From Bradyrhizobiaceae bacterium (lineage in GTDB: Bacteria; Pseudomonadota; Alphaproteobacteria; Rhizobiales; Xanthobacteraceae), in NCBI GenBank assembly GCA_044463945.1, contig JBIQLW010000019.1, positions 8,990 through 72,989 on the forward strand: DNA of 64,000 nucleotides, read 5' to 3'. Shown piece after piece: positions 5,508-15,880 of the stretch (the first letter of the stretch is position 1; each line of letters starts with the position of its first letter). The position numbers and the translations under genes are program-made. Under the pieces are notes generated by a model that was given only the letters and a program-made list of their open reading frames with translations, had not been told where the DNA came from and ran no database searches.

Positions 5508-5556
5508 CTATTTCCGGTCAGACGCTCAGGATCACCCTCTCGCGCGGACCTCGCTT

Positions 5557-5601
5557 CATCATGCTCTGAACTCATCATGCTCTGAACTCATCGTGCTCTG
5601 A
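5557..5601. repeat. Tandem 16-bp repeat (2.8 units)
   Basis: CATCATGCTCTGAACT x2 followed by CATCGTGCTCTGA. Confidence 0.75.
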
Positions 5602-5804
5602 CGACGGAAACGTCGTCCTCATCTGCAGAATGTATCCAGAGCGGACCTGGGACGCCTTATAGGCGAAGTCTATCGGGATCAGATGAAGCAGGGACCAGTG
5701 CTGTGCATTCCGGCATCTTGCATTCAAGTATCTGATATATATGAAAATCTGCCATTCCTTATGGTATGCGGAATCCCATCGCGGCGGATTGCGCAAAAAA
5801 ATCT

Positions 5805-5833
5805 TGGATACATAAATTGACTTCTGGATACAT
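5805..5833. promoter_or_regulatory. Direct repeat TGGATACAT x2 (20-bp phasing) in an AT-rich stretch just upstream of the ABC operon; candidate operator/promoter
   Basis: TGGATACAT at 5805-5813 and 5825-5833, with TTGACT between them. It lies 49-77 bp upstream of the first permease start in the only AT-rich stretch of this region. Confidence 0.3.
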
Positions 5834-5881
5834 CTAGCTCAGTTTGCCCGCCAACTTCAGGCTGGGGTTGGGGAGGGGCCG

Positions 5882-6868
5882 GTGAGCAGCAGCTTAAGCG
5901 CGCGTGGGCCGAAACTGACGCAGACGGTGGCGGTTCTCGCCATGTGCGCGATTCTGATCGTGCTTTTTTCGATCTTCCTGAACGGCTTTCTGACGCTGGG
6001 CAATCTGTTCGCGCTGGCGCGCAACGTCTCCATTCTCGGCATTCTGGCGCTCGGCATGGCCGTGGTGGTGATCGGCCGCGGGCTCGATCTCTCCCAGGTC
6101 GCCACCTTCGCCGCGTCCACCGCCATAGCCATCATCCTGATGAACTCCGGCTATACCACGCCGGTCGCGCTGCTGATCGGATTCGCCATGGCGGTCGGCA
6201 TCGGCATCCTCAACGGTTTCATGATCGCGGTGATCGAGATGCCGGCGCTGCTCACCACGCTGGCGTCGAGTCTCGCGGTGCTCGGCATCACCCGCACCGC
6301 CGCCGTGCAGCACTACGTCGTCTATCTGTCCAAGGGGCACGAGGACTTCCTCAGGCTCGGCGGAAATATCTGGGGCGGCGTGCCGATCTCGCTCTTGATC
6401 TTCGTGGCGACCGCGGTGGCGGTCCATCTGTTCCTGTCGCGCACGGTGGCCGGACGTTTCATCTACGCGCACGGCGACAATCCCGATGCGGCGCGGCTCA
6501 GCGGCCTGCCGACCCGCCCGCTGACCATGCTCGAATACGCGCTGTCCGCGGCCATCGGCTATATCGGCGGCGTGATGATGGTGGCGCAGACCGCGCTGAT
6601 GCATCTGCAGGTCGCGGAATCGACGCTGATCTTCGACGTCATCATGGTGGTCGTGCTGGGCGGCGTCAGCCTCGTCGGCGGCCGCGGCAACGTCATGAGC
6701 GTGGTCGCCGGCACGCTGCTGATCGGCGTGCTGCTGAACGGCATGACCATCATGGACATGGACGTGCAGACCCAGAACATCGTCAAGGGCGTCGTGCTGC
6801 TGATCGCGATCGTGCTGGATTCGCGGCTGTACCCGCGCGACGAGGAGACGTCCAAGCAAGGCGACTGA
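5882..6868 (+). CDS. Sugar (CUT2/ribose-type) ABC transporter permease
   Basis: RbsC-like multi-TM protein: GFLTLGNLFALARNVSILGILALGMAVVVIGRGLDLS...; GTG start as in the track, exact start uncertain. Confidence 0.9.
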   Translation: MSSSLSARGPKLTQTVAVLAMCAILIVLFSIFLNGFLTLGNLFALARNVSILGILALGMAVVVIGRGLDLSQVATFAASTAIAIILMNSGYTTPVALLIGFAMAVGIGILNGFMIAVIEMPALLTTLASSLAVLGITRTAAVQHYVVYLSKGHEDFLRLGGNIWGGVPISLLIFVATAVAVHLFLSRTVAGRFIYAHGDNPDAARLSGLPTRPLTMLEYALSAAIGYIGGVMMVAQTALMHLQVAESTLIFDVIMVVVLGGVSLVGGRGNVMSVVAGTLLIGVLLNGMTIMDMDVQTQNIVKGVVLLIAIVLDSRLYPRDEETSKQGD

Positions 6869-6928
6869 CCACAACGCTTCATCCGCCGGCCGCGGCAAAC
6901 GGCCGTATTGAAACAAGGGAGGATAGAC

Positions 6929-7939
6929 ATGAGGACATCGATGAAACGGAATCTGCTGGCCGGCATCGGCCTTGCGGTCGCGGCCTGTCTGGTGGCGGCG
7001 TCCGCGTCGCAGGCGGCCGGGCCGCGCGAGCAGTTGCGCGAGAGCTTCGACAAGGCGCTGAAGGGCAAGACGGTCGCCTGGTCGCCGGTGTGGCTCGGCG
7101 TCCTCGAGTCGCAGTGGACCGAGGTGATGAAGTCCCGCTTCGACGACTACGGCATCAAGCTGATCACCCGCGACCCCAACATGAAATCCGATGTTCAGTT
7201 GCAGACGATCAGCGATTACATCAACGAGAAGCCGGACGTCATCGTCGTTCAGAACCCCAACGTCACCCTGCTGGCCCGCGAATTGAAGCGGGCGATGGAC
7301 GCGGGGATCTACGTGGTTCAGGTCAACATGGCCTCCAACACGCTGACCGATGCCTATGTCGGCGTCGATGCCTGGGACATGGGCCGCAAGCTCGCGCGCG
7401 AGGTGATCAGCGAGTGCGGCGGCGGCAAGGGCTCGGGCAAGATCGCGATCCTCGAAGGCGAGGCCACGGCGGCCTATTCCCTCGACATGAAGAACGGCGC
7501 GATGGAGGTGTTCAAGACCGATCCGTCGGTCAAGGTGGTCTCCTCGCAGCCCACGAGCTGGGACGCCAACAAGGCCGGCGACATCACCGCCACGGTGTTG
7601 CAGCAGAACCCGGATCTGTGTGCGATCTTGAGTGTCTGGGGGCCGCAGACCGCCGGCGCGGCACAGGCGATCAAGGCCGCGGGCAAGGGTGATCAGGTGA
7701 AAGTGTTCGTCGCCAGCGACGGCCAGCCGGCCGACTGCGATCTTCTGGAGCAGGGCGCTTTCTATCGCAACCTGTCCTATCGCGCCGACGTGCAGGGCCA
7801 GACCATCGCGGACGCCGTGATCGCGCTGCTTCAAAGCGGCGAGAAGCCGGGCAGCAAGAAGATCGCCTATTATTCCACGCCGGCCTGGGTGAAGTCGAAG
7901 GATGACCGGAAGTACTGCTTCTCGGTGTCCAAGAAGTAA
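6929..7939 (+). CDS. Periplasmic sugar-binding protein of the ABC transporter
   Basis: ATG at 6929 preceded by AAGGGAGGA. Signal peptide MRTSMKRNLLAGIGLAVAACLVAASASQAAG, then a PBP type-I sugar-binding fold. Confidence 0.9.
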   Translation: MRTSMKRNLLAGIGLAVAACLVAASASQAAGPREQLRESFDKALKGKTVAWSPVWLGVLESQWTEVMKSRFDDYGIKLITRDPNMKSDVQLQTISDYINEKPDVIVVQNPNVTLLARELKRAMDAGIYVVQVNMASNTLTDAYVGVDAWDMGRKLAREVISECGGGKGSGKIAILEGEATAAYSLDMKNGAMEVFKTDPSVKVVSSQPTSWDANKAGDITATVLQQNPDLCAILSVWGPQTAGAAQAIKAAGKGDQVKVFVASDGQPADCDLLEQGAFYRNLSYRADVQGQTIADAVIALLQSGEKPGSKKIAYYSTPAWVKSKDDRKYCFSVSKK

Positions 7940-8082
7940 CTTAAGGGCGCGAAGTCACTGACGGCGGCCCGCGCCGGACGCGACGCGGGCCTCCCGATCC
8001 GATCGAAAGCCGCTTTCATTTCTCCAGCCGACTCGTTTCTCAAGACGCCGGCCCCGCGCGGGCCGGAACCGGATTTGCGTCG

Positions 8083-10194
8083 ATGAAAAGTTTGCAGCGA
8101 TTCTGGCATCGCAACTCGCCTCAGCTCTTTCTCGGTGAACTGCTTGAGAAACGGTGGATGGAGCCGATCATTCCATTCACGCTGACGATTCTGGTGTTTC
8201 TGGTGTTCGCGGTCTCGGTGCCGCGCTATCTCTCCCCCGGAAGTCTTCAGGAATTGATGCGCAATTTCGCGGAGCAGGCCATGGTCGCCGTGGCCATGGC
8301 CTTCTCCATCCTGTCGGGCGGTTTCGACCTGTCGGTCGGCGCCGTGTTCGCGATGGCGAACTTCCTCACAATCTATCTCTATCTCATTCTCGGGCTGCCG
8401 CTGCCGGTGGCGGTCGTCCTCGTCATCCTGTTCGGCGCGGCGATGGGGGCGATCAACGGCGGCCTGATCGCCTATGGCAAGACCCGTCCGTTCCTCACCA
8501 CCCTCGTCGTTCTCATCATCGTCCGCGCCGCCTACAACAAGGTGACGATCGCCTACACCAACGAACTCGCCTCCATCGACATGGGAGGCGACGTCTGGGA
8601 TTTCATGGGATCGGGCCGCATTCTCGGCATTCCGGTCAACATGGTGGCGCTGATCGTGCTGGCGGTCGTGACCCACTTCTTCCTGACGCGGGTAAAGCCG
8701 GGCGTTCACATCATGGCGGTGGGGTCGAGCCGCAAGGCGGCGCGCCACGCCGGCGTCAACGTCAAGCTGGTGCTGTTCTCCGCCTATGTCTATTCGGGAA
8801 TGATCGCGTCGCTGGCGGGAATTTTCTATGCGGCGCGGCAGAACAGTTCGGGCACCGACACCGGCGTCGGCTGGGAAATCAACGCATTCGCCGCGGTGGT
8901 GCTGGGCGGCATCAGCCTTGCCGGCGGGCGCGGCACCATCGCGCGCGCGGTGATGGGCGCGGCGATCATCTTCATGCTCATCAGCGGCATGGTGCGGCTT
9001 GGCATTTCCGGCAACCTGACCACGGCGATCATCGGCGTCATCCTGCTGGTCGCGGTCGGCTTCAACGTGAAGTGGGTCAAGAACAAGGGCAAGGTGCTGC
9101 AAAAGGTCTATGTAACGCCGAGTTGGGTCGATTTCAGCCCGCCACCATCGATCGCCCGCGACAGCGGCACGCCCTTCGCCGAGAACGACCGCCTCAAGAA
9201 CGCGGAAGCCATCGCGCTCAACAAGATCGAAGGCCCGGAGGACGTCATCCTTGACCGCAAGGACAATCTCTACACCGTCAACCGCAACGGCTCGATCATC
9301 CGCTTCCTCGCTCCCGATTACGAGGTGCGGGAGGAATTCGCCCGCATCGGCGGCCGCCCGCTTGGCCTCGCCTTCGACAAGGACCAGAACCTTCTGGTGT
9401 GCATCGCCGGCATGGGCGTCTATGGCGTGCGGCCCGACCGCACCGTCTTCAAGGTGACGGACCGCACCACGCGCACCCGCACCCGCCTGAAGGACGACTC
9501 GCGCCTCTATCTCGCCGACGATCTCGACGTCGCCCCCGACGGCAAGATCTATTTCAGCGAAGCCTCCACCCGCTATGAACTGACCGACTGGGCGCTCGAC
9601 GGCTTTGAGGGGCGCGGCAACGGCCGCCTGATCTGCCACGATCCCGCGACCGGGACGACACAGACGGTTCTCAAGAACCTGACGTTCCCCAACGGCATTT
9701 GCATCTCGCATGACGGCCGCTCGGTGCTGTGGGCCAGCACCTGGCTGTGCCAGGTCCATCGTTACTGGATCGCGGGGCCGAAGGCGGGGACCAGCGAACT
9801 GCTGATCGATAACCTCCCGGGCTATTGCGACAACATCAACCGCGCCTCCGACGGGAAGTACTGGCTGGCGATGGTCGGCCTGCGCACGCCGGTCTACGAC
9901 CTCGCGATGCGCAACCCCAGCTTCCGCACCCGCATGGTCAAGCAGATTCCGCCGGACGAGTGGCTGTGTCCGGGAATCAATTACGGCTGCATCATCAAGT
10001 TCGACGACAACGGCGTGGTCAGCGAATCGTTGTGGGACCCCGGCGGCGAGTCGCATCCCACCATCACCTCGATCCGCGAGCACAAGGGCTATCTCTATAT
10101 CGGCGGCCTGGAGAACAACCGCATCGGGCGGATTCGTCTGCCGGACGCCGACCCGACATGGGAAGCGCACAAGTCCTATTGGGGAGGCGCCTGA
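8083..10194 (+). CDS. Fusion protein: CUT2 ABC permease (N-terminal ~335 aa) + strictosidine-synthase/SMP-30/gluconolactonase-like beta-propeller (C-terminal ~350 aa)
   Basis: N-terminal RbsC-like TM domain ends ...TTAIIGVILLVAVGFNVKWVKNKGK. C-terminal part: GPEDVILDRKDNLYT...GRPLGLAFD...DDLDVAPDGKIYFSEAS...FPNGICISHDG...YCDNINRASDGKYWLA, typical SSL/SGL propeller blades. Confidence 0.9.
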   Translation: MKSLQRFWHRNSPQLFLGELLEKRWMEPIIPFTLTILVFLVFAVSVPRYLSPGSLQELMRNFAEQAMVAVAMAFSILSGGFDLSVGAVFAMANFLTIYLYLILGLPLPVAVVLVILFGAAMGAINGGLIAYGKTRPFLTTLVVLIIVRAAYNKVTIAYTNELASIDMGGDVWDFMGSGRILGIPVNMVALIVLAVVTHFFLTRVKPGVHIMAVGSSRKAARHAGVNVKLVLFSAYVYSGMIASLAGIFYAARQNSSGTDTGVGWEINAFAAVVLGGISLAGGRGTIARAVMGAAIIFMLISGMVRLGISGNLTTAIIGVILLVAVGFNVKWVKNKGKVLQKVYVTPSWVDFSPPPSIARDSGTPFAENDRLKNAEAIALNKIEGPEDVILDRKDNLYTVNRNGSIIRFLAPDYEVREEFARIGGRPLGLAFDKDQNLLVCIAGMGVYGVRPDRTVFKVTDRTTRTRTRLKDDSRLYLADDLDVAPDGKIYFSEASTRYELTDWALDGFEGRGNGRLICHDPATGTTQTVLKNLTFPNGICISHDGRSVLWASTWLCQVHRYWIAGPKAGTSELLIDNLPGYCDNINRASDGKYWLAMVGLRTPVYDLAMRNPSFRTRMVKQIPPDEWLCPGINYGCIIKFDDNGVVSESLWDPGGESHPTITSIREHKGYLYIGGLENNRIGRIRLPDADPTWEAHKSYWGGA

Positions 10195-10196
10195 GC

Positions 10197-11315
10197 ATGT
10201 CCCTCCTTGGCGATATCATCGATCGCGTGTTGTTTCCCAACCGCGAGATCCACGTCATCCCGGTGCTCGACGGCGCCTTCTCGCCGAACAAGCGGCTCGA
10301 TCAGGCCCGCCAGCTCGGCGGCGAGATCGCGCGGCCGGACGACATCGCCGCCGGTCCCGACGGTGCGCTCTACGTCTCGACCGGCAATGCCATCCTGCGC
10401 TGCACCGGCGCGGATTTCGAGACGCGCGAGACGTTCGCGACGCTCGGCGGCGCGGTCGGCGGTCTGGCGTTCGCGGCGGACGGACGGCTGCTGGCCTGCG
10501 TGTCCGGGCAGGGGCTGGTGGCGCTGTCGCCGGCCGGCAAGATCGTCGGCACGCTGGAGAATGTGGGCGGCGCGCGGATCGTCTGTCCGCTGTCGGTCGC
10601 CGTCGCGCCTGACGGCGCGATCTGTGTCACCGACGGCTCACGGCACAATTTGCCGGAGCAGTGGCTTGCCGACCTGATGCAGAACCGCCCGCCGTCCGGC
10701 CGGCTGATCGTCTGCAACGCGGCGCTCGGTGAGGCCCGCGTCCGCGCCGACAAACTTGCATGGCCGCTCGGCCTCGCGGTGTCCCACGACGGCAACGAGA
10801 TTCTGGTCGCCGAATCCTGGACCCATCGGCTCACCGCCTTCGCGCGTACCGGCACTGCCGCGCGCGTGATCGTCAGGAACTACAGCGGCTATCCGGCGCG
10901 CCTGTCGCGCGATGACGCGGGCGGTTACTGGATGGCGTTCTTCGCGCTGCGCACGCAACTCACCGAATTCGTGCTGCGCGAGCGGGCGTTCTGCGATGAA
11001 ATGATGCGGACGGTGCCGCCCGACCTGTGGATCGGCCCGGCGCTGGACGGGCGTATCAATCCGCGCGAGCCGACCCAGATCGGGCGGATCAAGAAGCTCG
11101 GGATTCAGAAGCCGTGGGCGCCGGCGCGCTCCTATGGGCTGGTGGCCCGGCTCGACGGCAGGGGCGAGGCGGTCGAGACGCTGCACAGCCGCGTCGATGG
11201 ACGGATCCACGGCGTCGTCGCCGTCCGGCCGGTCGGTGACCGCGTGGTGGCGGTCGCCAAGGGCCGCGACTGCCTGGTCGCGTTGCCGCCCGCCGGCGGC
11301 GCAAGGGAAGGGTGA
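10197..11315 (+). CDS. Stand-alone SMP-30/strictosidine-synthase-like beta-propeller protein (no signal peptide)
   Basis: ATG 3 nt after the previous stop. Blades such as PDDIAAGPDGALYVS, GLAFAADGRLLAC, SVAVAPDGAICVTDGS, LGLAVSHDGNEILVAESW, LSRDDAGGYWMAFF. The track ORF from 9825 is an out-of-gene N-terminal extension. Confidence 0.8.
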   Translation: MSLLGDIIDRVLFPNREIHVIPVLDGAFSPNKRLDQARQLGGEIARPDDIAAGPDGALYVSTGNAILRCTGADFETRETFATLGGAVGGLAFAADGRLLACVSGQGLVALSPAGKIVGTLENVGGARIVCPLSVAVAPDGAICVTDGSRHNLPEQWLADLMQNRPPSGRLIVCNAALGEARVRADKLAWPLGLAVSHDGNEILVAESWTHRLTAFARTGTAARVIVRNYSGYPARLSRDDAGGYWMAFFALRTQLTEFVLRERAFCDEMMRTVPPDLWIGPALDGRINPREPTQIGRIKKLGIQKPWAPARSYGLVARLDGRGEAVETLHSRVDGRIHGVVAVRPVGDRVVAVAKGRDCLVALPPAGGAREG

Positions 11316-11320
11316 GGATC

Positions 11321-12853
11321 ATGCCAGCGGAGAAAGGCGAGGTGTCGCCGCTGCTTCGGATCGTCAACGGCAGCAAGGTCTACGGCGGCCTTCACGCCAT
11401 CGATGGCGTCAATTTCGATCTGCGTCCCGGCGAGATTCACGCGCTGCTGGGCGAGAACGGCGCGGGAAAATCCACCCTGTGCAAGGCGATCGCCGGCGCC
11501 ATCGAACTGACCTCGGGCGATTACCTGATCGGCGGCGAGAAGGTGTCGTTCGCCTCGCCCAAGGAAGCGCTGGAGGGCGGCGTCGCGATGGTCTACCAGG
11601 AATCCAGCCTGGTCCCGTCGATGACGGTCGCGCAGAACCTCGAACTCGGCATGGAGAAATGGTTCACCGTCTACAGCAAGATCAACATCGCCGCGACCCA
11701 GTCGTTGCAGTCGATGAACTTCAACGTCGATCCGCTCGCTCTGGTCGAAACGCTGGGAACGGCGAAGCGGCAGATGGTCGAGATCGTCCGCGCGGTGCGC
11801 CACAACGCCAGGATCTTCATCTTCGATGAGCCCACGGCGTCGCTGACGCCGGAGGAGATGCAGCACCTGTTCCATCTGCTCAATACGCTGAAGGAGCGCG
11901 GCGCGGGGATCATCTTCATTTCGCACGCGCTTGAGGAAGCGCTCGACATTGCCGACCGCATCACCGTGCTGCGCGACGGCAAGCTGGTGGCGACCGTTCC
12001 CGCCGCGGGAATGACGCGCGACGCCCTGGTGCGCATGATGGTCGGCCGCGAGGAAACCGCGAGCCATTACGCGAGCCACGGCGCCGATCCCGACGCCGCG
12101 ACGCCGCGGGCAAAGCGCGGCGAGAAGGTGCTGTCGGTCGAGAACGTGACCATGGGCAGCATGGTCAAGAACATGTCGTTCTCGGTGTTCAACAGCGAGG
12201 TCGTCGGCATCTTCGGGCTGGTCGGCGCGGGACGCTCCGAGGTCGCGCAGATCGTCTGCGGCGCGCGCAAGCGCAACTTCCTGCGCGGCGGCATGATCTA
12301 TCTGCGGGACAAGCCGATCCGCTACCGCGTGCCGCGGCAGGCGGTGCGCGACGGCATCGCCTACATCACCGAGGATCGCAAGGTCGATGGTTTCTTCGAG
12401 ACCATGACCGTCGATCAGAACATCTATCTCGGCTATCTCGCCTCGCCCCGGGTCAAGCGTTTCCTGTATTCCGTGCGCGAGATGAAGCGCGTCGCCGATC
12501 ACTGGATCGCCGCGCTGTCGATCTCGGCCCTGAAGCGGTCGCTGAAGATCATCGAATATTCCGGCGGAAACCAGCAGAAGGTGGTGGTCGGCAAGTCGCT
12601 GGCGCAGGAGCCGACGGTGGTGATCTTCGACGAGCCGACGCGCGGCGTAGATGTCAGCGCCATTCCGCAAATTCACGCGGCGATCCGTAACCTCGCGGGC
12701 GAGAACAAGGCCGTGGTCGTGATCTCGTCCTACCTGCCTGAAATCCTCGCCATCTCGGATCGCATCCTGGTGGCGCGCGGCGGCCGCATCGTCGAGGAGA
12801 TGGCGCGCGCGGATGCGACCGAGGAGAAGATCATGTATGCCGCCATTCACTGA
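11321..12853 (+). CDS. Sugar ABC transporter ATP-binding protein (duplicated ATPase, RbsA-like)
   Basis: Walker A GENGAGKST, LGTAKRQMVEI, second half with YSGGNQQKVVVGK. Start ATG 11321 (alternative GTG 11312 overlapping the previous stop). Confidence 0.93.
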   Translation: MPAEKGEVSPLLRIVNGSKVYGGLHAIDGVNFDLRPGEIHALLGENGAGKSTLCKAIAGAIELTSGDYLIGGEKVSFASPKEALEGGVAMVYQESSLVPSMTVAQNLELGMEKWFTVYSKINIAATQSLQSMNFNVDPLALVETLGTAKRQMVEIVRAVRHNARIFIFDEPTASLTPEEMQHLFHLLNTLKERGAGIIFISHALEEALDIADRITVLRDGKLVATVPAAGMTRDALVRMMVGREETASHYASHGADPDAATPRAKRGEKVLSVENVTMGSMVKNMSFSVFNSEVVGIFGLVGAGRSEVAQIVCGARKRNFLRGGMIYLRDKPIRYRVPRQAVRDGIAYITEDRKVDGFFETMTVDQNIYLGYLASPRVKRFLYSVREMKRVADHWIAALSISALKRSLKIIEYSGGNQQKVVVGKSLAQEPTVVIFDEPTRGVDVSAIPQIHAAIRNLAGENKAVVVISSYLPEILAISDRILVARGGRIVEEMARADATEEKIMYAAIH

Positions 12854-12916
12854 TGTCATGAGCCATCGATGAGCGCTTTTCAGCAGCCCCGTTCGCGCAG
12901 GGAGCCGGGAGGGGAC

Positions 12917-13657
12917 ATGGACGACGATCCGGAGGACGGCCGCCTGATGAGCGAGCGCATCGCCGCCGAGATCCGTAGCGCAGTTCTGAGCGGCGAGATG
13001 CGGCCGGGAATGCGCATCCGGCAGGAACTGCTCGCCGCCCATTTCGGCGCCAGCCGCATTCCGGTGCGCGAGGCGCTGAAGCAGCTTGAGAACGAGGGTC
13101 TGGTGGTGATGGCGCCGAACCGCGGCGCCTGGATCGCGGACGTCAATTCGGACGAATCCATCGAGATTTACAAGATCCGCGAGGCGGTGGAGCCGCTGGC
13201 CATCGGCGAAAGCGTGCCGAACCTGACCGACGAGGACATCGATACGCTCGACGCCATCGTGCGCGAACTGGAGCACGTCCCGACGCTTGAGGAATACATC
13301 CAGCTCGATCGCGAGTTTCATCTGCGCACTTATGCGGGGGCGCGGATGCCGCAGCTTCTGGCGATGGTCGAGCGATTCTGGAACAGCACGCAGCATTTTC
13401 GGCGGTTGTTCGTGAAGGAAGCCTATGCCAAGGATGGATTCCCGTTCTCCGATCCCCAGCATCTGCTGTTGATGGATGCGATCCGGGCGCGCGACGTCGA
13501 TGCGGCGCAGATATTGGTGCGTCTGCATATCCGCAGAACGCGCCTCGTCATCGAGACGACGGAGAGGGGGACCAGCCGGTCGCCGGTGGCCAGCCGCTCC
13601 GTCGTGCGGCGCACCCCGCCGGGCCCGGTTTATCGAAGGAGAGACAGTCATGAGTGA
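12917..13657 (+). CDS. GntR-family transcriptional regulator (FCD C-terminal domain)
   Basis: GASRIPVREALKQLENEGLV winged HTH followed by an FCD-like helical domain. ATG 12917 has a GGGAGGGG RBS; alternative start 12869. Confidence 0.9.
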   Translation: MDDDPEDGRLMSERIAAEIRSAVLSGEMRPGMRIRQELLAAHFGASRIPVREALKQLENEGLVVMAPNRGAWIADVNSDESIEIYKIREAVEPLAIGESVPNLTDEDIDTLDAIVRELEHVPTLEEYIQLDREFHLRTYAGARMPQLLAMVERFWNSTQHFRRLFVKEAYAKDGFPFSDPQHLLLMDAIRARDVDAAQILVRLHIRRTRLVIETTERGTSRSPVASRSVVRRTPPGPVYRRRDSHE

Positions 13658-14525
13658 TTTTCAGAAGATCGGCGTGGTCGGCGCCGGCATGATGGGCTCC
13701 GAGATTGCCCTGATGTTCGCGCTCGCCGGCTATCCGACGCTGCTCAGCGATCAGTCGCGCGAGGCGGCCGAGCGCGCGATCGAGCGCCTTCACGGCGTGC
13801 TCGACCGCGGCCTGCCCCGGCGGTTCTGGTCGGAGGAAGCGGCGGCCACCGCGCGCCGCCAGCTTGCGGTCGCCGATAGCCTCGATGCCTATGCCGACCG
13901 TGACCTGGTGATCGAAGCGGTGTTCGAGGACGAGGCGCTGAAGCGCGACGTGTTCAAACGGCTCGACGCCATCGTCGCGCCGGGGGCGGGGCTGGCGTCC
14001 AACACCTCGTCGATCTCCATCACCACGCTGAGTTCGGCGGTGGCGGAGCCGCGCCGCGCCCGCTTCATCGGCACGCATTTCTTCTCGCCGGTGTCGCGCA
14101 TGAAACTGGTGGAGGTGATCCCGGCCGCCGACACCGATCCCGCCTTCGCCGATGCGGTGAGCGACGTCATGACCGCGATCGGCAAGGCGCCGATCCGCGT
14201 CAAGGACGTCGTCGGCTTCGCCGTCAACCGGCTGCTGCACGCGCTGGTGCTCGAATCGATCCGCCTCGTCGAGGAAGGCGTGTGCTCGCCGGCGGATATC
14301 GACGCCGCCTGCAAGCTCGGCCTCGGGCATCCGATCGGCCCGTTCGAACTGATGGACAATACCCAGAACTCGCTGTCGCTGAGCGTGCACGAGATTCTTC
14401 ATCAGGCTTACGGCGAGCGCTTCCTGCCGCGCCCGCTGCTGCGCCAGATGGTCGCCGCCGGCTATAACGGCCGCAAGGCGGGGCGCGGGTGGCATCGTTA
14501 CGGCAGCGACGGCAAGAAGCAATGA
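13650..14525 (+). CDS. 3-hydroxyacyl-CoA (3-hydroxybutyryl-CoA) dehydrogenase
   Basis: IGVVGAGMMGSEIA Rossmann motif, HFFSPV, C-terminal dimerisation domain; overlaps the GntR stop by 8 nt. Confidence 0.92.
   Translation: MSDFQKIGVVGAGMMGSEIALMFALAGYPTLLSDQSREAAERAIERLHGVLDRGLPRRFWSEEAAATARRQLAVADSLDAYADRDLVIEAVFEDEALKRDVFKRLDAIVAPGAGLASNTSSISITTLSSAVAEPRRARFIGTHFFSPVSRMKLVEVIPAADTDPAFADAVSDVMTAIGKAPIRVKDVVGFAVNRLLHALVLESIRLVEEGVCSPADIDAACKLGLGHPIGPFELMDNTQNSLSLSVHEILHQAYGERFLPRPLLRQMVAAGYNGRKAGRGWHRYGSDGKKQ

Positions 14526-14572: not shown

Positions 14573-15880
<1,308 letters not shown>

Follow-up and report, generated by a model that had tools for sequence, protein, structure and literature searches.

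An ABC importer permease fused to a strictosidine synthase-like propeller, a candidate lactone-trapping system of bacteria

In the window (the whole 64,000-nucleotide stretch of DNA analyzed here), a single gene encodes a membrane subunit of a CUT2-type ABC importer which runs on, in the same frame, into a six-bladed propeller of the SSL/N6P type. This fusion is real and old. Judging by its conserved residues, the propeller is most likely a metal-dependent SSL/N6P hydrolase, namely a lactonase, and it is predicted to face the cytoplasm. Together with its neighbors, the gene belongs to a cassette which we regard, with somewhat more belief than doubt, as a CUT2 importer of a lactone, where the cytoplasmic metal-dependent hydrolase of the second permease would open the ring and trap the hydroxy acid for CoA-dependent catabolism. 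We infer the hydrolase activity, the lactone substrates, the role of the free paralogous propeller (SSL2), and the coupling, kinetic or physical, of transport and hydrolysis.

The accessory domains known from ABC importers are, to our knowledge, either binding proteins or ATPase-borne regulatory domains. A permease that contains a catabolic enzyme and has been kept for long across several phyla would show the first metabolic step hard-wired onto the importer; for small membrane-permeant neutral lactones, such an enzyme–permease would be a trapping device. It would bear on what bacterial strictosidine-synthase-like proteins do, as well as on gamma-lactone uptake into the recently defined 4-hydroxy-acid pathway (LvaA/LvaC, ACAD10/11); the relevant compounds include plant and flavor lactones, gamma-valerolactone (a solvent made from biomass), and possibly mevalonolactone and molecules resembling quorum signals. 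The literature search for the fusion, for the characterization of any of its members or for lactone ABC importers returned nothing relevant, and no ABC importer with a permease-borne catabolic enzyme was found described there. Current annotations of the family read only “ABC transporter permease”, “ribose transport system permease” or “SMP-30/gluconolactonase/LRE family protein”.

The fusion gene and its cassette

The initial annotation had described a complete permease joined to a complete propeller in one 703-codon frame, and this description holds. The frame is a listed ORF without interruption on translation; the peptides quoted for the membrane part (TTAIIGVILLVAVGF, aa 313–327; NVKWVKNKGK, aa 328–337) and for the propeller (GPEDVILD, 384–391; GRPLGLAFD, 424–432; DVAPDGKIYFSEAS, 482–495; FPNGICISHDG, 535–545; NINRASDGKYWLA, 584–596) are all found in it, and both domains appear complete by Pfam profile search, AF2, and Foldseek. 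All four Pfam matches pass their curated cut-offs, far beyond chance: BPD_transp_2 (aa 60–324, E 7.5e-33, 114.2 bits vs. a cut-off of 26.8, profile positions 7–268 of 269), SSL_N (aa 364–408, E 2.2e-14, 53.5 vs. 18.9 bits), Str_synth (aa 479–565, E 6.9e-22, 77.8 vs. 25 bits), and SGL (aa 392–599, E 3.4e-12, 46.9 vs. 26.3 bits). The features of the locus are collected in Table 1.

Table 1. Coordinates of the fusion gene, its cassette and the neighboring genes in the window
Feature	Position	Strand	Details
Operator-like repeats upstream of operon	5630..5833	+	ATGTATCCA 5630-5638; direct TGGATACAT copies 5805-5813, 5825-5833
Permease 1, partner of fused permease	5882..6868	+	plain CUT2/AraH-RbsC-type, 328 aa; Pfam BPD_transp_2 E 9.6e-34
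Periplasmic substrate-binding protein	6908..7939	+	Pfam Peripla_BP_4 E 1.2e-45
Fusion ORF	8083..10194	+	703 codons/aa, ATG start, uninterrupted translation
Permease domain, fusion aa 1-327	8083..9063	+	ten-helix CUT2; coupling loop aa 202-228; TM10 aa 310-327
K-rich TM10 continuation and linker, fusion aa 328-375	9064..9207	+	NVKWVKNKGKVLQK; alignments, AF2
Six-bladed SSL/N6P propeller, fusion aa 376-703 and stop	9208..10194	+	Pfam, PDB sequence matches, Foldseek
Propeller ligand codons	E386 9238-9240; D479/D480 9517-9522; N537 9691-9693; D583 9829-9831	+	
SSL2, free paralogous propeller	10197..11315	+	372 aa; start 2 nt past fusion stop, behind GGAGG
ABC ATPase, CUT2 type	11312..12853	+	513 aa, two tandem nucleotide-binding domains; Pfam ABC_tran, two stretches, E 1.8e-48
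GntR/FCD-family transcriptional regulator	12869..13657	+	Pfam GntR and FCD
3-Hydroxyacyl-CoA dehydrogenase	13476..14525	+	Pfam 3HCDH_N and 3HCDH; NCBIfam 3-hydroxyacyl/butyryl-CoA dehydrogenase subfamilies
LvaC/ACAD10-11-type acyl-CoA dehydrogenase family protein	14573..15880	+	Pfam ACAD domains

For comparison of the loci, 80 related loci were fetched. The order permease 1, binding protein, fusion, SSL2, ATPase is kept in nearly all loci whose length suffices to reveal it, PGAP-annotated copies included, and permease 1 opens the cassette in all loci. Every transporter part resembles monosaccharide systems, but none reaches an equivalog cut-off of NCBIfam, so a sugar substrate was rejected as an assignment from this source. 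Thus, the fusion is matched best among permeases by ribose RbsC (E 1.9e-45; 155 bits vs. 398), the binding protein by AlsB (99 vs. 335 bits), and the AraG/XylG/RbsA-like ATPase by AraG (449 vs. 689 bits), whereas permease 1 is AraH/RbsC-like below the cut-offs. The binding protein carries a signal peptide (MKRNLLAGIGLAVAACLVAASASQA/AG), its true start probably being the ATG at 6929 or 6941.

The second propeller, SSL2, follows the fusion directly on its 3' side in nearly all of the sufficiently long loci. It is devoid of a signal peptide, its PDB matches are generic propellers only, and three of the four metal-ligand positions of the fused domain (479/480, 537, 583) are replaced, while R584, H651, and S652 are invariants of its own. 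Given this loss, SSL2 is probably a non-catalytic partner.

The regulator gene adjoins the cassette in 50 of the 80 loci. Upstream of permease 1, nearly all related loci with a downstream GntR gene (L033 is an exception) have one to three copies, nearly always two or three, of a motif, TGGATACA/TGTATCCA, which almost never occurs elsewhere within those ~23-kb loci. The ATGTATCCA/TGGATACAT repeats of the window are, hence, predicted as probable GntR/FCD binding sites, and the regulator probably controls the operon through the TGGATACAT repeats.

Proposed working and substrate

The genes found near the cassette repeatedly encode pathways starting from a hydroxy acid. In the window, these are the two dehydrogenase genes downstream of the regulator. 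The start of the 3-hydroxyacyl-CoA dehydrogenase is probably located after the GntR stop, since the domain begins at aa 64 of the ORF counted from 13476. The ACAD displays R-x7-HCMR at aa 254–265 and ADGPDEVH with the catalytic Asp, i.e., the R-x7-HCMR helix and catalytic Asp (DGPDEVH) by which the LvaC/ACAD10/11 signature was defined (PMC12440821). The HC[ML]R motif is present in 41 of 47 neighboring ACADs of the related loci; among the 80 loci, 45 contain an acyl-CoA ligase, 24 an SDR, and 9 an APH-type kinase. On a Sulfitobacter alexandrii plasmid, genes for the kinase, a small protein, an AMP-ligase, the HCMR-type ACAD, and a hypothetical protein are co-directional with the cassette, and their boundaries touch or overlap, so the run looks like one operon. 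In Mesorhizobium and Shinella, a degradative HMG-CoA reductase is encoded immediately upstream. This context fits a lactone-to-hydroxy-acid step.

In the operation proposed here, the binding protein would hand a small neutral lactone, probably a gamma-lactone in the clade of the window and probably mevalonolactone in the Mesorhizobium/Shinella clade, to the heterodimer that permease 1 forms with the fused permease, and the tandem ATPase would power translocation. The rigid K-rich helix and the nearly fixed-length linker would keep the propeller close to the inner face of the membrane, where it would open the lactone ring, yielding a charged hydroxy acid unable to diffuse back out. The acid may then pass to the acyl-CoA ligase, LvaA-like kinase, and LvaC-like ACAD, followed by a hydratase and the 3-hydroxyacyl-CoA dehydrogenase; SSL2 probably acts as a non-catalytic partner. 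A farther-reaching version, an obligatory hydrolytic group translocation in which the propeller and the degenerate SSL2 sit at the cytoplasmic exit and ring opening is coupled mechanistically either to release or to the cycle of the ATPase, is rather unlikely. If it were true, the substrate would never be free in the cytoplasm and the chemistry would make transport irreversible, a mode not described for ABC importers; the cassette would then be a portable unit of lactone capture, attached to different pathways of acid catabolism.

Certain observations count against the lactone reading. CUT2 binding proteins classically take sugars, not lactones. The context in distant clades is heterogeneous (tetrose/acid-sugar genes in Pantoea; CoA-transferase, MaoC, and lyase genes in Paraburkholderia; nothing telling in Celeribacter), and in the window itself, the ligase and the kinase are missing: tblastn revealed in it no acyl-CoA ligase, APH kinase, SDR, hydratase, CoA-transferase or HMG-CoA reductase.

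A catalytic propeller located in the cytoplasm might also act on a substrate other than a lactone, e.g., a sugar or polyol ester or conjugate whose sugar part would be recognized by the RbsB-like binding protein and whose cleavage would release the sugar and a carboxylic acid, or it might catalyze another N6P reaction. The closest solved relative by sequence, rice TGW6 (E 9e-23), which is also among the Foldseek matches, reportedly cleaves IAA-glucose; the likeness of the transporter parts to monosaccharide systems and the sugar-like context in Pantoea point the same way, and the N6P enzymes show promiscuous esterase, lactonase, and phosphotriesterase activity (PMC4215206). Still, we judge this alternative improbable: the commonest neighbors are specific to 4-hydroxyacyl-CoA (the LvaC signature and the LvaA-like kinase) or to mevalonate (HMG-CoA reductase), 4-hydroxy acids and mevalonate are both the products of lactone ring opening, and sugar-catabolic genes are absent beside the cassette in most loci.

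Predicted activity and placement of the fused propeller, and age of the fusion

Besides TGW6, PDB sequence searches with the propeller retrieved strictosidine synthases (E about 1e-17) and Drp35 (E 1.8e-5), and Foldseek returned strictosidine synthases, TGW6, the lactonase RPA3624, Drp35, DFPase, and SMP30 with a probability of 1.00 and TM-scores of 0.74–0.78. Hydrolases of the N6P type are recognized by four metal-ligand positions, E, N/D, N, and D, on blades 1, 3, 4, and 5. In the alignment, E386, D479/D480, N537, and D583 do not vary in any of the fused domains (at least 30 diverse ones) or in the free signal-anchored SSLs; E383, considered as the first ligand, was discarded, being variable in the free SSLs, whereas E386 (of GPED) is invariant. 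The mapping onto solved metalloenzymes follows from motif register and partial HMMER alignments rather than from a superposed model: the Drp35 alignment boundaries are consistent with the pairing of E48 with E386 and of N185 with N537, while the register of the DFPase and SMP30 ligands is one which we take to be correct from motif knowledge.

Strictosidine synthase activity was ruled out, the catalytic Glu of STR1 being absent. The propeller is not such an enzyme because the catalytic His307/Glu309 of STR1 align in HMMER with T660/T662 (within an invariant HPTITS) and because N537 and D583, aligned with N and D in TGW6, stand where the synthase has G and G. On the other hand, SSL proteins retaining all four ligands are predicted hydrolases (PMC4215206), and RPA3624 of R. 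palustris is a Ca-dependent gamma-valerolactone lactonase (PMC9843451). The loss of catalytic residues, feared in the initial annotation as a sign of a purely structural domain, is seen in SSL2, which serves as an internal control, but not in the fused propeller.

A regulatory, sensing or scaffolding propeller devoid of catalysis, which would bind the product (trans-inhibition) or dock a downstream enzyme, nevertheless has precedents of a kind: propellers commonly serve as interaction scaffolds, and MalK, MetN, and ModC carry C-terminal regulatory domains, albeit not on the permease. A structural role would also suit the rigid conserved linker, and SSL2 of the same operon is clearly non-catalytic by ligand loss. 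However, the invariance of the four ligand positions in the fused domains together with their loss in the paralog suggests selection on the active site, and no other component of the system is as well conserved as the propeller (57–66% identity in the most distant loci vs. 40–52% for the membrane domain, 37–51% for the binding protein, 30–51% for SSL2, and 55–64% for the ATPase). Such a non-catalytic role is, therefore, quite improbable, and a metal-dependent hydrolase remains the preferred reading.

As to the placement of this putative hydrolase, ten TM helices are found in the fusion both by hydropathy and by AF2, with the coupling loop (about 6 K/R) between TM6 and TM7. TM10 can be considered the canonical last helix, since the match to the Pfam permease profile extends no further than aa 324; the AF2 helix spanning TM10 and its continuation covers aa 310–340 or 310–344, and neither a hydrophobic segment nor an eleventh helix was seen after TM10 in the fusion and 17 diverse homologs. 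In all 17 of these, the tail after TM10 contains exactly five K/R, and the mean K+R content of the predicted loops is 19.6 inside vs. 3.2 outside. Foldseek of the permease-domain model (pTM 0.80) retrieved the type II importer subunits HmuU, BhuU, BtuC, HI1471, and FhuB (TM-score 0.5–0.59); no solved CUT2 membrane-domain structure was found by sequence search, and by fold only type II importers were. In established structures, the termini of BtuC, HmuU, and BhuU are cytoplasmic. CUT2 permeases have been described as 10-TMS relatives of BtuC (PMC3654945). The cytoplasmic C-terminus supposed in the initial annotation is, thus, also what helix count, charge bias, the five-K/R tail, and the BtuC-like fold predict. 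The full-length AF2 model is of moderate confidence (pLDDT 73.9, pTM 0.54) with a low-confidence linker, and it was set aside as a guide to how the propeller lies with respect to the membrane.

Were the propeller periplasmic, it would hydrolyze the lactone or ester outside, and the product would be imported by the binding protein and transporter. This arrangement, which we hold to be very improbable, finds some footing in the closest free relatives of the propeller (33–41% identity), extracytoplasmic proteins in all of which the SSL_N motif is immediately preceded by an N-terminal signal peptide or anchor, and in the disagreement of topology programs on some CUT2 permeases (PMC3654945). It conflicts with the even number of helices that follow the cytoplasmic coupling loop, the absence of an eleventh helix, the inclusion of TM10 in the Pfam permease model, the positively charged tail of every homolog, the charge bias of the loops, the cytoplasmic termini of the BtuC-like fold, and the lack of a signal peptide in SSL2.

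The age of the fusion follows from its distribution. Surveyed genomes of at least 259 representative species encode a relative, the carriers being Alpha-, Beta-, and Gammaproteobacteria, Desulfobacterium, Desulfatiglandales, and Ca. Udaeobacter, and more than 120 protein clusters (72–98% identity) possess the same four-domain architecture. An intact frame of 703–755 aa is present in 79 of the 80 loci; in the remaining one (L059), a frameshift lies within the membrane domain, away from the junction. The linker is almost free of indels in an alignment of 17 sequences down to 49% identity, its length is nearly fixed (gap of at most one residue), and K337, K341, Y343, V344, and P346 are invariant. 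No genuine split version was found among the relatives examined: two free proteins of 345–347 aa (P0123 and P0310) come from long-read contigs (L081 and L082) with single frameshifts within the linker, and they are considered assembly errors because the linker peptide is still encoded in the other frame. Likewise, a 1060-aa permease–propeller–SSL2 triple fusion (L068) turned out to be an illusion created by masked N bases at a gene boundary. The idea that the fusion arose in the source genome from a sequencing or assembly error, or from recent read-through of a pseudogene-like kind, therefore deserves practically no credence: frameshifts in the fusion gene do turn up in long-read metagenome contigs, but they split the gene and do not fuse it, and the fused frame with its conserved linker is the rule in independent genomes, including complete ones and PGAP-annotated plasmids.

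Comparison with known systems

With the CUT2 importers (TC 3.A.1.2: RbsABC, AraFGH, XylFGH, YtfQRT-YjfF, LsrACDB), the cassette shares a Peripla_BP_4 protein with a signal peptide, two 10-helix BPD_transp_2 permeases, a single tandem-NBD ATPase, and the operon organization. It differs from them in the extension of one permease by an enzyme-like propeller of ~370 aa, an extra propeller gene within the operon, the absence of scores at any NCBIfam equivalog cut-off, and neighbors related to acyl-CoA rather than to sugar catabolism.

The propeller shares the six-bladed fold (TM-score 0.71–0.78), the SGL/Str_synth/SSL_N Pfam families, and the four conserved acidic/amide metal-ligand positions with N6P hydrolases (RPA3624, Drp35, SMP30/gluconolactonase, DFPase, PON1) and the SSL subgroup (rice TGW6, APMAP); in anchored SSLs, too, the membrane-proximal SSL_N segment comes after a membrane helix. 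Those proteins are soluble or singly anchored, whereas the anchor of the fused domain is the last helix of a transporter, predicted to leave it on the cytoplasmic side; the solved members are only 12–24% identical to the propeller, whose hydrolase activity is a prediction. Strictosidine synthase STR1, a Pictet-Spenglerase, is its best Foldseek and Pfam family match, but differs in the catalytic and ligand residues compared above.

Catalysis tied physically or kinetically to membrane passage is known from peptidase-containing ABC exporters (PCAT), PTS group translocation, and FadL/FadD vectorial acylation, where the transporter classes, enzyme folds, and directions are all unlike those of the fusion. 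In QsdH, a GDSL AHL-lactonase domain is part of an RND-type inner-membrane protein (PMC3466314), so a lactonase on a transporter, putative in the fusion, is common to both, but the transporter class, the enzyme fold, and the direction are different.

The lva operon of Pseudomonas putida and mammalian ACAD10/ACAD11, involved in 4-hydroxy-acid catabolism, resemble the related loci in the LvaE-like ligase, LvaA-like APH kinase, small protein, LvaC-like ACAD, and SDR encoded nearby. As described, the lva operon is without a lactonase or an ABC importer of the fusion kind (PMC12440821), whereas the related loci join the pathway genes to an importer with a putative lactonase; in the window, the ACAD and the 3-hydroxyacyl-CoA dehydrogenase are the only such genes. 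[quoted passage not shown] Although QsdA belongs to another fold family and carries no transporter part, the pathway logic proposed here is shared: the gamma-lactone ring is opened, and the acid is then activated with CoA.

Anatomy of the fusion and predicted metal site of its propeller

Translation of the window gives one uninterrupted frame for the fusion (see the table), in which every peptide quoted in the initial annotation is found in its place. The two domains proposed there, i.e., the permease and the strictosidine-synthase/SGL-like propeller, are recovered as four Pfam domains, each far over the curated cut-off. RbsC, GguB, and AraH are the NCBIfam families nearest to the permease domain, but every equivalog cut-off is missed by far, and no component of the cassette matches a named transporter in NCBIfam. 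Due to the G+C content (~64%), the window abounds in shadow ORFs: a long antisense ORF overlies the fusion gene and most other genes are similarly shadowed, such ORF clusters being "conserved" merely as mirrors of real genes.

Features of the cassette region (nucleotide positions in the window; aa, residues of the fusion protein)
Feature	Position	Details
16-nt tandem repeat TCATCATGCTCTGAAC	5556-5603	between sdhB and the transporter operon; two exact copies, one at 81%
Putative operator motif TGGATACAT	5630-5638, 5805-5813, 5825-5833	two direct copies, one inverted (ATGTATCCA)
Permease 1	5882-6868	plain CUT2 permease
Binding protein	6908-7939	Peripla_BP_4; clear signal peptide
Antisense ORF	7870-10170 (-)	766 aa
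GC-rich inverted repeats	7963-7976/7981-7994 and 7965-7977/8053-8065	in the 144-nt binding-protein/fusion gap
Fusion	8083-10194 (+)	703 codons; permease + propeller
BPD_transp_2 permease	aa 60-324	Pfam, full-length; E 7.5e-33, profile 7-268 of 269
SSL_N	aa 364-408	Pfam
SGL	aa 392-599	Pfam
Str_synth	aa 479-565	Pfam, E 6.9e-22
SSL2	10197-11315	free 372-aa SSL-like propeller; GGAGG upstream; start 2 nt past the fusion stop; no signal peptide
ATPase	11312-12853	tandem nucleotide-binding domains
Acyl-CoA dehydrogenase (ACAD)	14573-15880	R-x7-HCMR helix; ADGPDEVH with catalytic Asp

The solved proteins closest to the propeller by sequence are rice TGW6 (E 9e-23), strictosidine synthases, and Drp35; its fold matches (TM-score 0.71-0.78) comprise strictosidine synthases, TGW6, the Ca-dependent lactonase RPA3624 of R. 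palustris, Drp35, DFPase, and SMP30. A Pictet-Spenglerase is ruled out, since T660/T662, located within the invariant HPTITS, take the places of the catalytic His307/Glu309 of strictosidine synthase in the alignment. The metal-ligand positions of N6P hydrolases are matched by E386 (GPED), D479/D480 (ADDLD), N537 (FPNG), and D583 (DNINR), none of which varies among the fused domains covered or the free SSLs, so the feared loss of metal-site residues is not seen. The residues that HMMER aligns with N537 and D583 are N and D in TGW6 but G and G in strictosidine synthase, and the boundaries of the Drp35 alignment are consistent with the pairing of E48 with E386 and N185 with N537. SSL proteins keeping the four ligands are predicted hydrolases (PMC4215206), and a hydrolytic activity is likewise inferred for the fused propeller. 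The weightiest of four rival explanations is that, by analogy with TGW6, it may act on a different ester or conjugate; opening of a lactone ring, the reading preferred here, has RPA3624 among the fold matches and the neighbouring acid pathways (see below) on its side.

The rival second in weight, a non-catalytic regulatory or scaffold domain, has against it the contrast with SSL2, which is translationally coupled to the fusion and sits directly behind it in nearly all related loci of sufficient length. Of the four metal-ligand positions, SSL2 no longer keeps three (479/480 to T/L, A/S; 537 variable; 583 to A/S/G/C); it possesses an invariant set of its own (equivalents of R584, H651, and S652) and finds only generic propellers in the PDB; PGAP names it "hypothetical protein" or "strictosidine synthase". 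In sequence terms, it is an internal control for ligand conservation: the ligands being invariant in the fused propeller and replaced in SSL2, the former appears to be under active-site selection, while the latter has turned into something else, most simply a putative non-catalytic partner.

Predicted membrane side and spread of the fusion

Hydropathy and two AF2 models concur on ten helices in the membrane domain, with a short coupling helix within the K/R-rich loop at aa 202-228. TM10 (aa 310-327), whose helix runs on through NVKWVKNKGKVLQK in AF2, is the normal last helix of the family and not an addition, since the Pfam and RbsC profiles stop at about aa 324-325. In 17 diverse homologues, mean K+R amounts to 19.6 in the predicted inside loops vs. 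3.2 outside, the tail after TM10 holds exactly five K/R (17/17), and no segment beyond TM10 exceeds a Kyte-Doolittle mean of 1.22. The membrane-domain model (pTM 0.80) matches HmuU, BhuU, BtuC, HI1471, and FhuB over its full length. Established structures place the termini of BtuC in the cytoplasm. CUT2 permeases are described as 10-TMS relatives of BtuC (PMC3654945). A cytoplasmic propeller, as envisaged in the initial annotation, is hence predicted from the ten helices, the normal last TM10, the charge bias, and the BtuC-like fold. A periplasmic location, third among the rivals, would be in line with the closest free relatives (33-41% identity), which are taken as extracytoplasmic since in all of them the SSL_N motif comes right after an N-terminal signal peptide or anchor. 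SSL_N of the fusion is likewise preceded by a membrane helix, but the predicted side of the membrane is the opposite one.

A search of 5.8 billion proteins returned >120 clusters (72-98% identity, 678-755 aa) from Bradyrhizobium, Rhodopseudomonas, Chelatococcus, Hypericibacter, Oceanibacterium, and Salipiger, all sharing the domain set of the fusion except one, which lacks the SGL call only. Scanning one genome per species revealed a relative in 259 genomes. The best 80 loci from these 259 genomes, taken for locus analysis, range from 98% (a Xanthobacteraceae MAG, probably a near relative of the source organism) to 49% identity, with hosts including Mesorhizobium, Rhodobacterales, Sneathiella, Acetobacteraceae, Burkholderiales, Desulfobacterium, Desulfatiglandales, and Ca. 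Udaeobacter; plasmids or chromids of Shinella, Paraburkholderia, Pantoea, Paracoccus, and Celeribacter carry the fusion, too. An alignment of 17 sequences, the most distant at 49% identity, contains just one one-residue gap over the stretch leading from TM10 into the first blade, and K337, K341, Y343, V344, and P346 of the linker are invariant. The last rival, a fusion created by a frameshift artefact, is discarded given this spread and the intact single fused frame in 79/80 loci (the exception, L059, is frameshifted at about 8580 of that locus, within the membrane domain).

Two database proteins resembling free fused-type propellers, P0123 and P0310, were rejected as products of single frameshifts within the linker in long-read metagenome contigs (L081, 5900-6010; L082, about 5900-6000), where the alternative frame still encodes the linker peptide. 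Thus, the survey called for earlier finds the fusion widespread and no genuine split version among the database proteins and loci covered. Single-base frameshifts in long-read metagenome assemblies also populate public protein sets with "partial" or apparently free propellers, and the JGI label "ribose transport system permease protein" is given even to propeller-only fragments. Two paralogous whole cassettes lie side by side in a Desulfobacterium MAG (L054, 87-4637 and 7763-14842) and a Rhodobacteraceae MAG (L068, 7795-14708 and 15511-22404), which suggests duplication and substrate diversification.

Gene neighbourhood and candidate substrates

The fusion is the third gene of a five-gene cassette, whose order is the same in almost every locus with a long enough contig (tblastn) and on PGAP-annotated plasmids. 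Among the components of the most distant loci, conservation is highest for the fused propeller (57-66% identity), as compared with the ATPase (55-64%), the fusion's own membrane domain (40-52%), the binding protein (37-51%), and SSL2 (30-51%). The inverted repeats preceding the fusion might form an mRNA hairpin setting an excess of binding protein over membrane subunits. Downstream of the ATPase, the window encodes a GntR/FCD regulator, 3-hydroxyacyl-CoA dehydrogenase, and ACAD; sdhAB lie upstream and cytochrome oxidase genes downstream. Of the related loci with a downstream GntR/FCD gene, nearly all (L033 being an exception) have 1-3 copies (nearly always 2-3) of the TGGATACAT/ATGTATCCA motif ahead of permease 1. 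Since it almost never occurs elsewhere in these loci, the motif is a probable operator.

Clustering of ORFs in the 10-kb flanks of these best 80 loci revealed, as recurrent neighbours, a GntR/FCD regulator (50/80), AMP-forming acyl-CoA ligase and ACAD (45/80 each), SDR (24/80), enoyl-CoA hydratase (15/80), 3-hydroxyacyl-CoA dehydrogenase (14/80), APH-family phosphotransferase (9/80), CaiB-type CoA-transferase (8/80), and HMG-CoA reductase (6/80). Hydrolysis of gamma-lactones yields 4-hydroxy acids. RPA3624 converts gamma-valerolactone to its 4-hydroxy acid in this way (PMC9843451). The R-x7-HCMR helix and catalytic Asp of the window ACAD were described as exclusive to LvaC of P. putida and the mammalian ACAD10/11, which eliminate phosphate from 4-phosphoacyl-CoA in 4-hydroxy-acid catabolism (PMC12440821); HC[ML]R is present in 41/47 neighbouring ACADs. 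On a Sulfitobacter alexandrii plasmid (L086), genes for a phosphotransferase, a small protein, an AMP-binding protein, an ACAD (HCMR, DGPDEVH), and a hypothetical protein precede the cassette, and look like one operon with it, being co-directional with touching or overlapping boundaries. The hypothetical protein (5868-6875, 335 aa, unannotated) lies between the LvaC-like ACAD and permease 1. In L029, L046, and other close relatives, the genes for the 3-hydroxyacyl-CoA dehydrogenase and the LvaC-type ACAD flank one for an acyl-CoA ligase; no homologue of this ligase is found anywhere in the 64-kb window.

In Mesorhizobium (L071-L076) and on Shinella sp. HZN7 pShin-02 (L085, 5579-13666), a degradative HMG-CoA reductase abuts permease 1 in the same orientation, accompanied in Mesorhizobium by a CaiB-type CoA-transferase and enoyl-CoA hydratase. 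Mevalonate is the ring-opened form of mevalonolactone, and the reductase directly upstream hints at the use of mevalonolactone/mevalonate. Pantoea sp. At-9b pPAT9B04 (L083) offers a tetrose/acid-sugar context (DAK-family kinase, TPI-family, TIM-barrel, RpiB, SorC regulator, D-arabinono-1,4-lactone oxidase, and enolase-superfamily genes), Paraburkholderia sp. 22B1P (L084) one of CoA-transferases, MaoC hydratases, and a CoA-ester lyase; the Celeribacter neighbours hold nothing informative on the substrate. The substrate probably differs by clade, the apparent common thread being a pathway starting from a carboxylic or hydroxy acid, a context which would suit a portable module for lactone import and ring opening.

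Proposed module and known systems

In the proposed module, the binding protein would take up a neutral lactone, to be moved across by the heterodimeric type II-like membrane domain and the tandem ATPase. The rigid basic helix and nearly fixed-length linker would keep the propeller at the inner face, where it would open the ring hydrolytically with a bound divalent metal, possibly with structural assistance from SSL2. The resulting anion would be trapped and passed to the ligase, kinase, LvaC-type ACAD, and beta-oxidation enzymes. The fusion would assure 1:1 stoichiometry and proximity and, for small membrane-permeant lactones, avert futile leakage. A true coupling of transport and hydrolysis is inferred, as are the activity, the substrate, and the role of SSL2.

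Besides its wide distribution and strict conservation, the permease-propeller fusion lends itself very well to experiments. No paper on it was found in the literature, and the annotations it bears are "ABC transporter permease", "ribose transport system permease protein", or "SMP-30/gluconolactonase/LRE family protein". The parts belong to known families (CUT2 importer, N6P/SSL propeller, lva-type pathway), while the combined architecture is annotated only generically. Peptidase-bearing ABC exporters and PTS group translocation provide further precedents. The nearest conceptual ones are QsdH, a GDSL lactonase domain in an RND-type membrane protein (PMC3466314), and the Rhodococcus qsd operon, which combines a lactonase with a ligase (PMC6262395).
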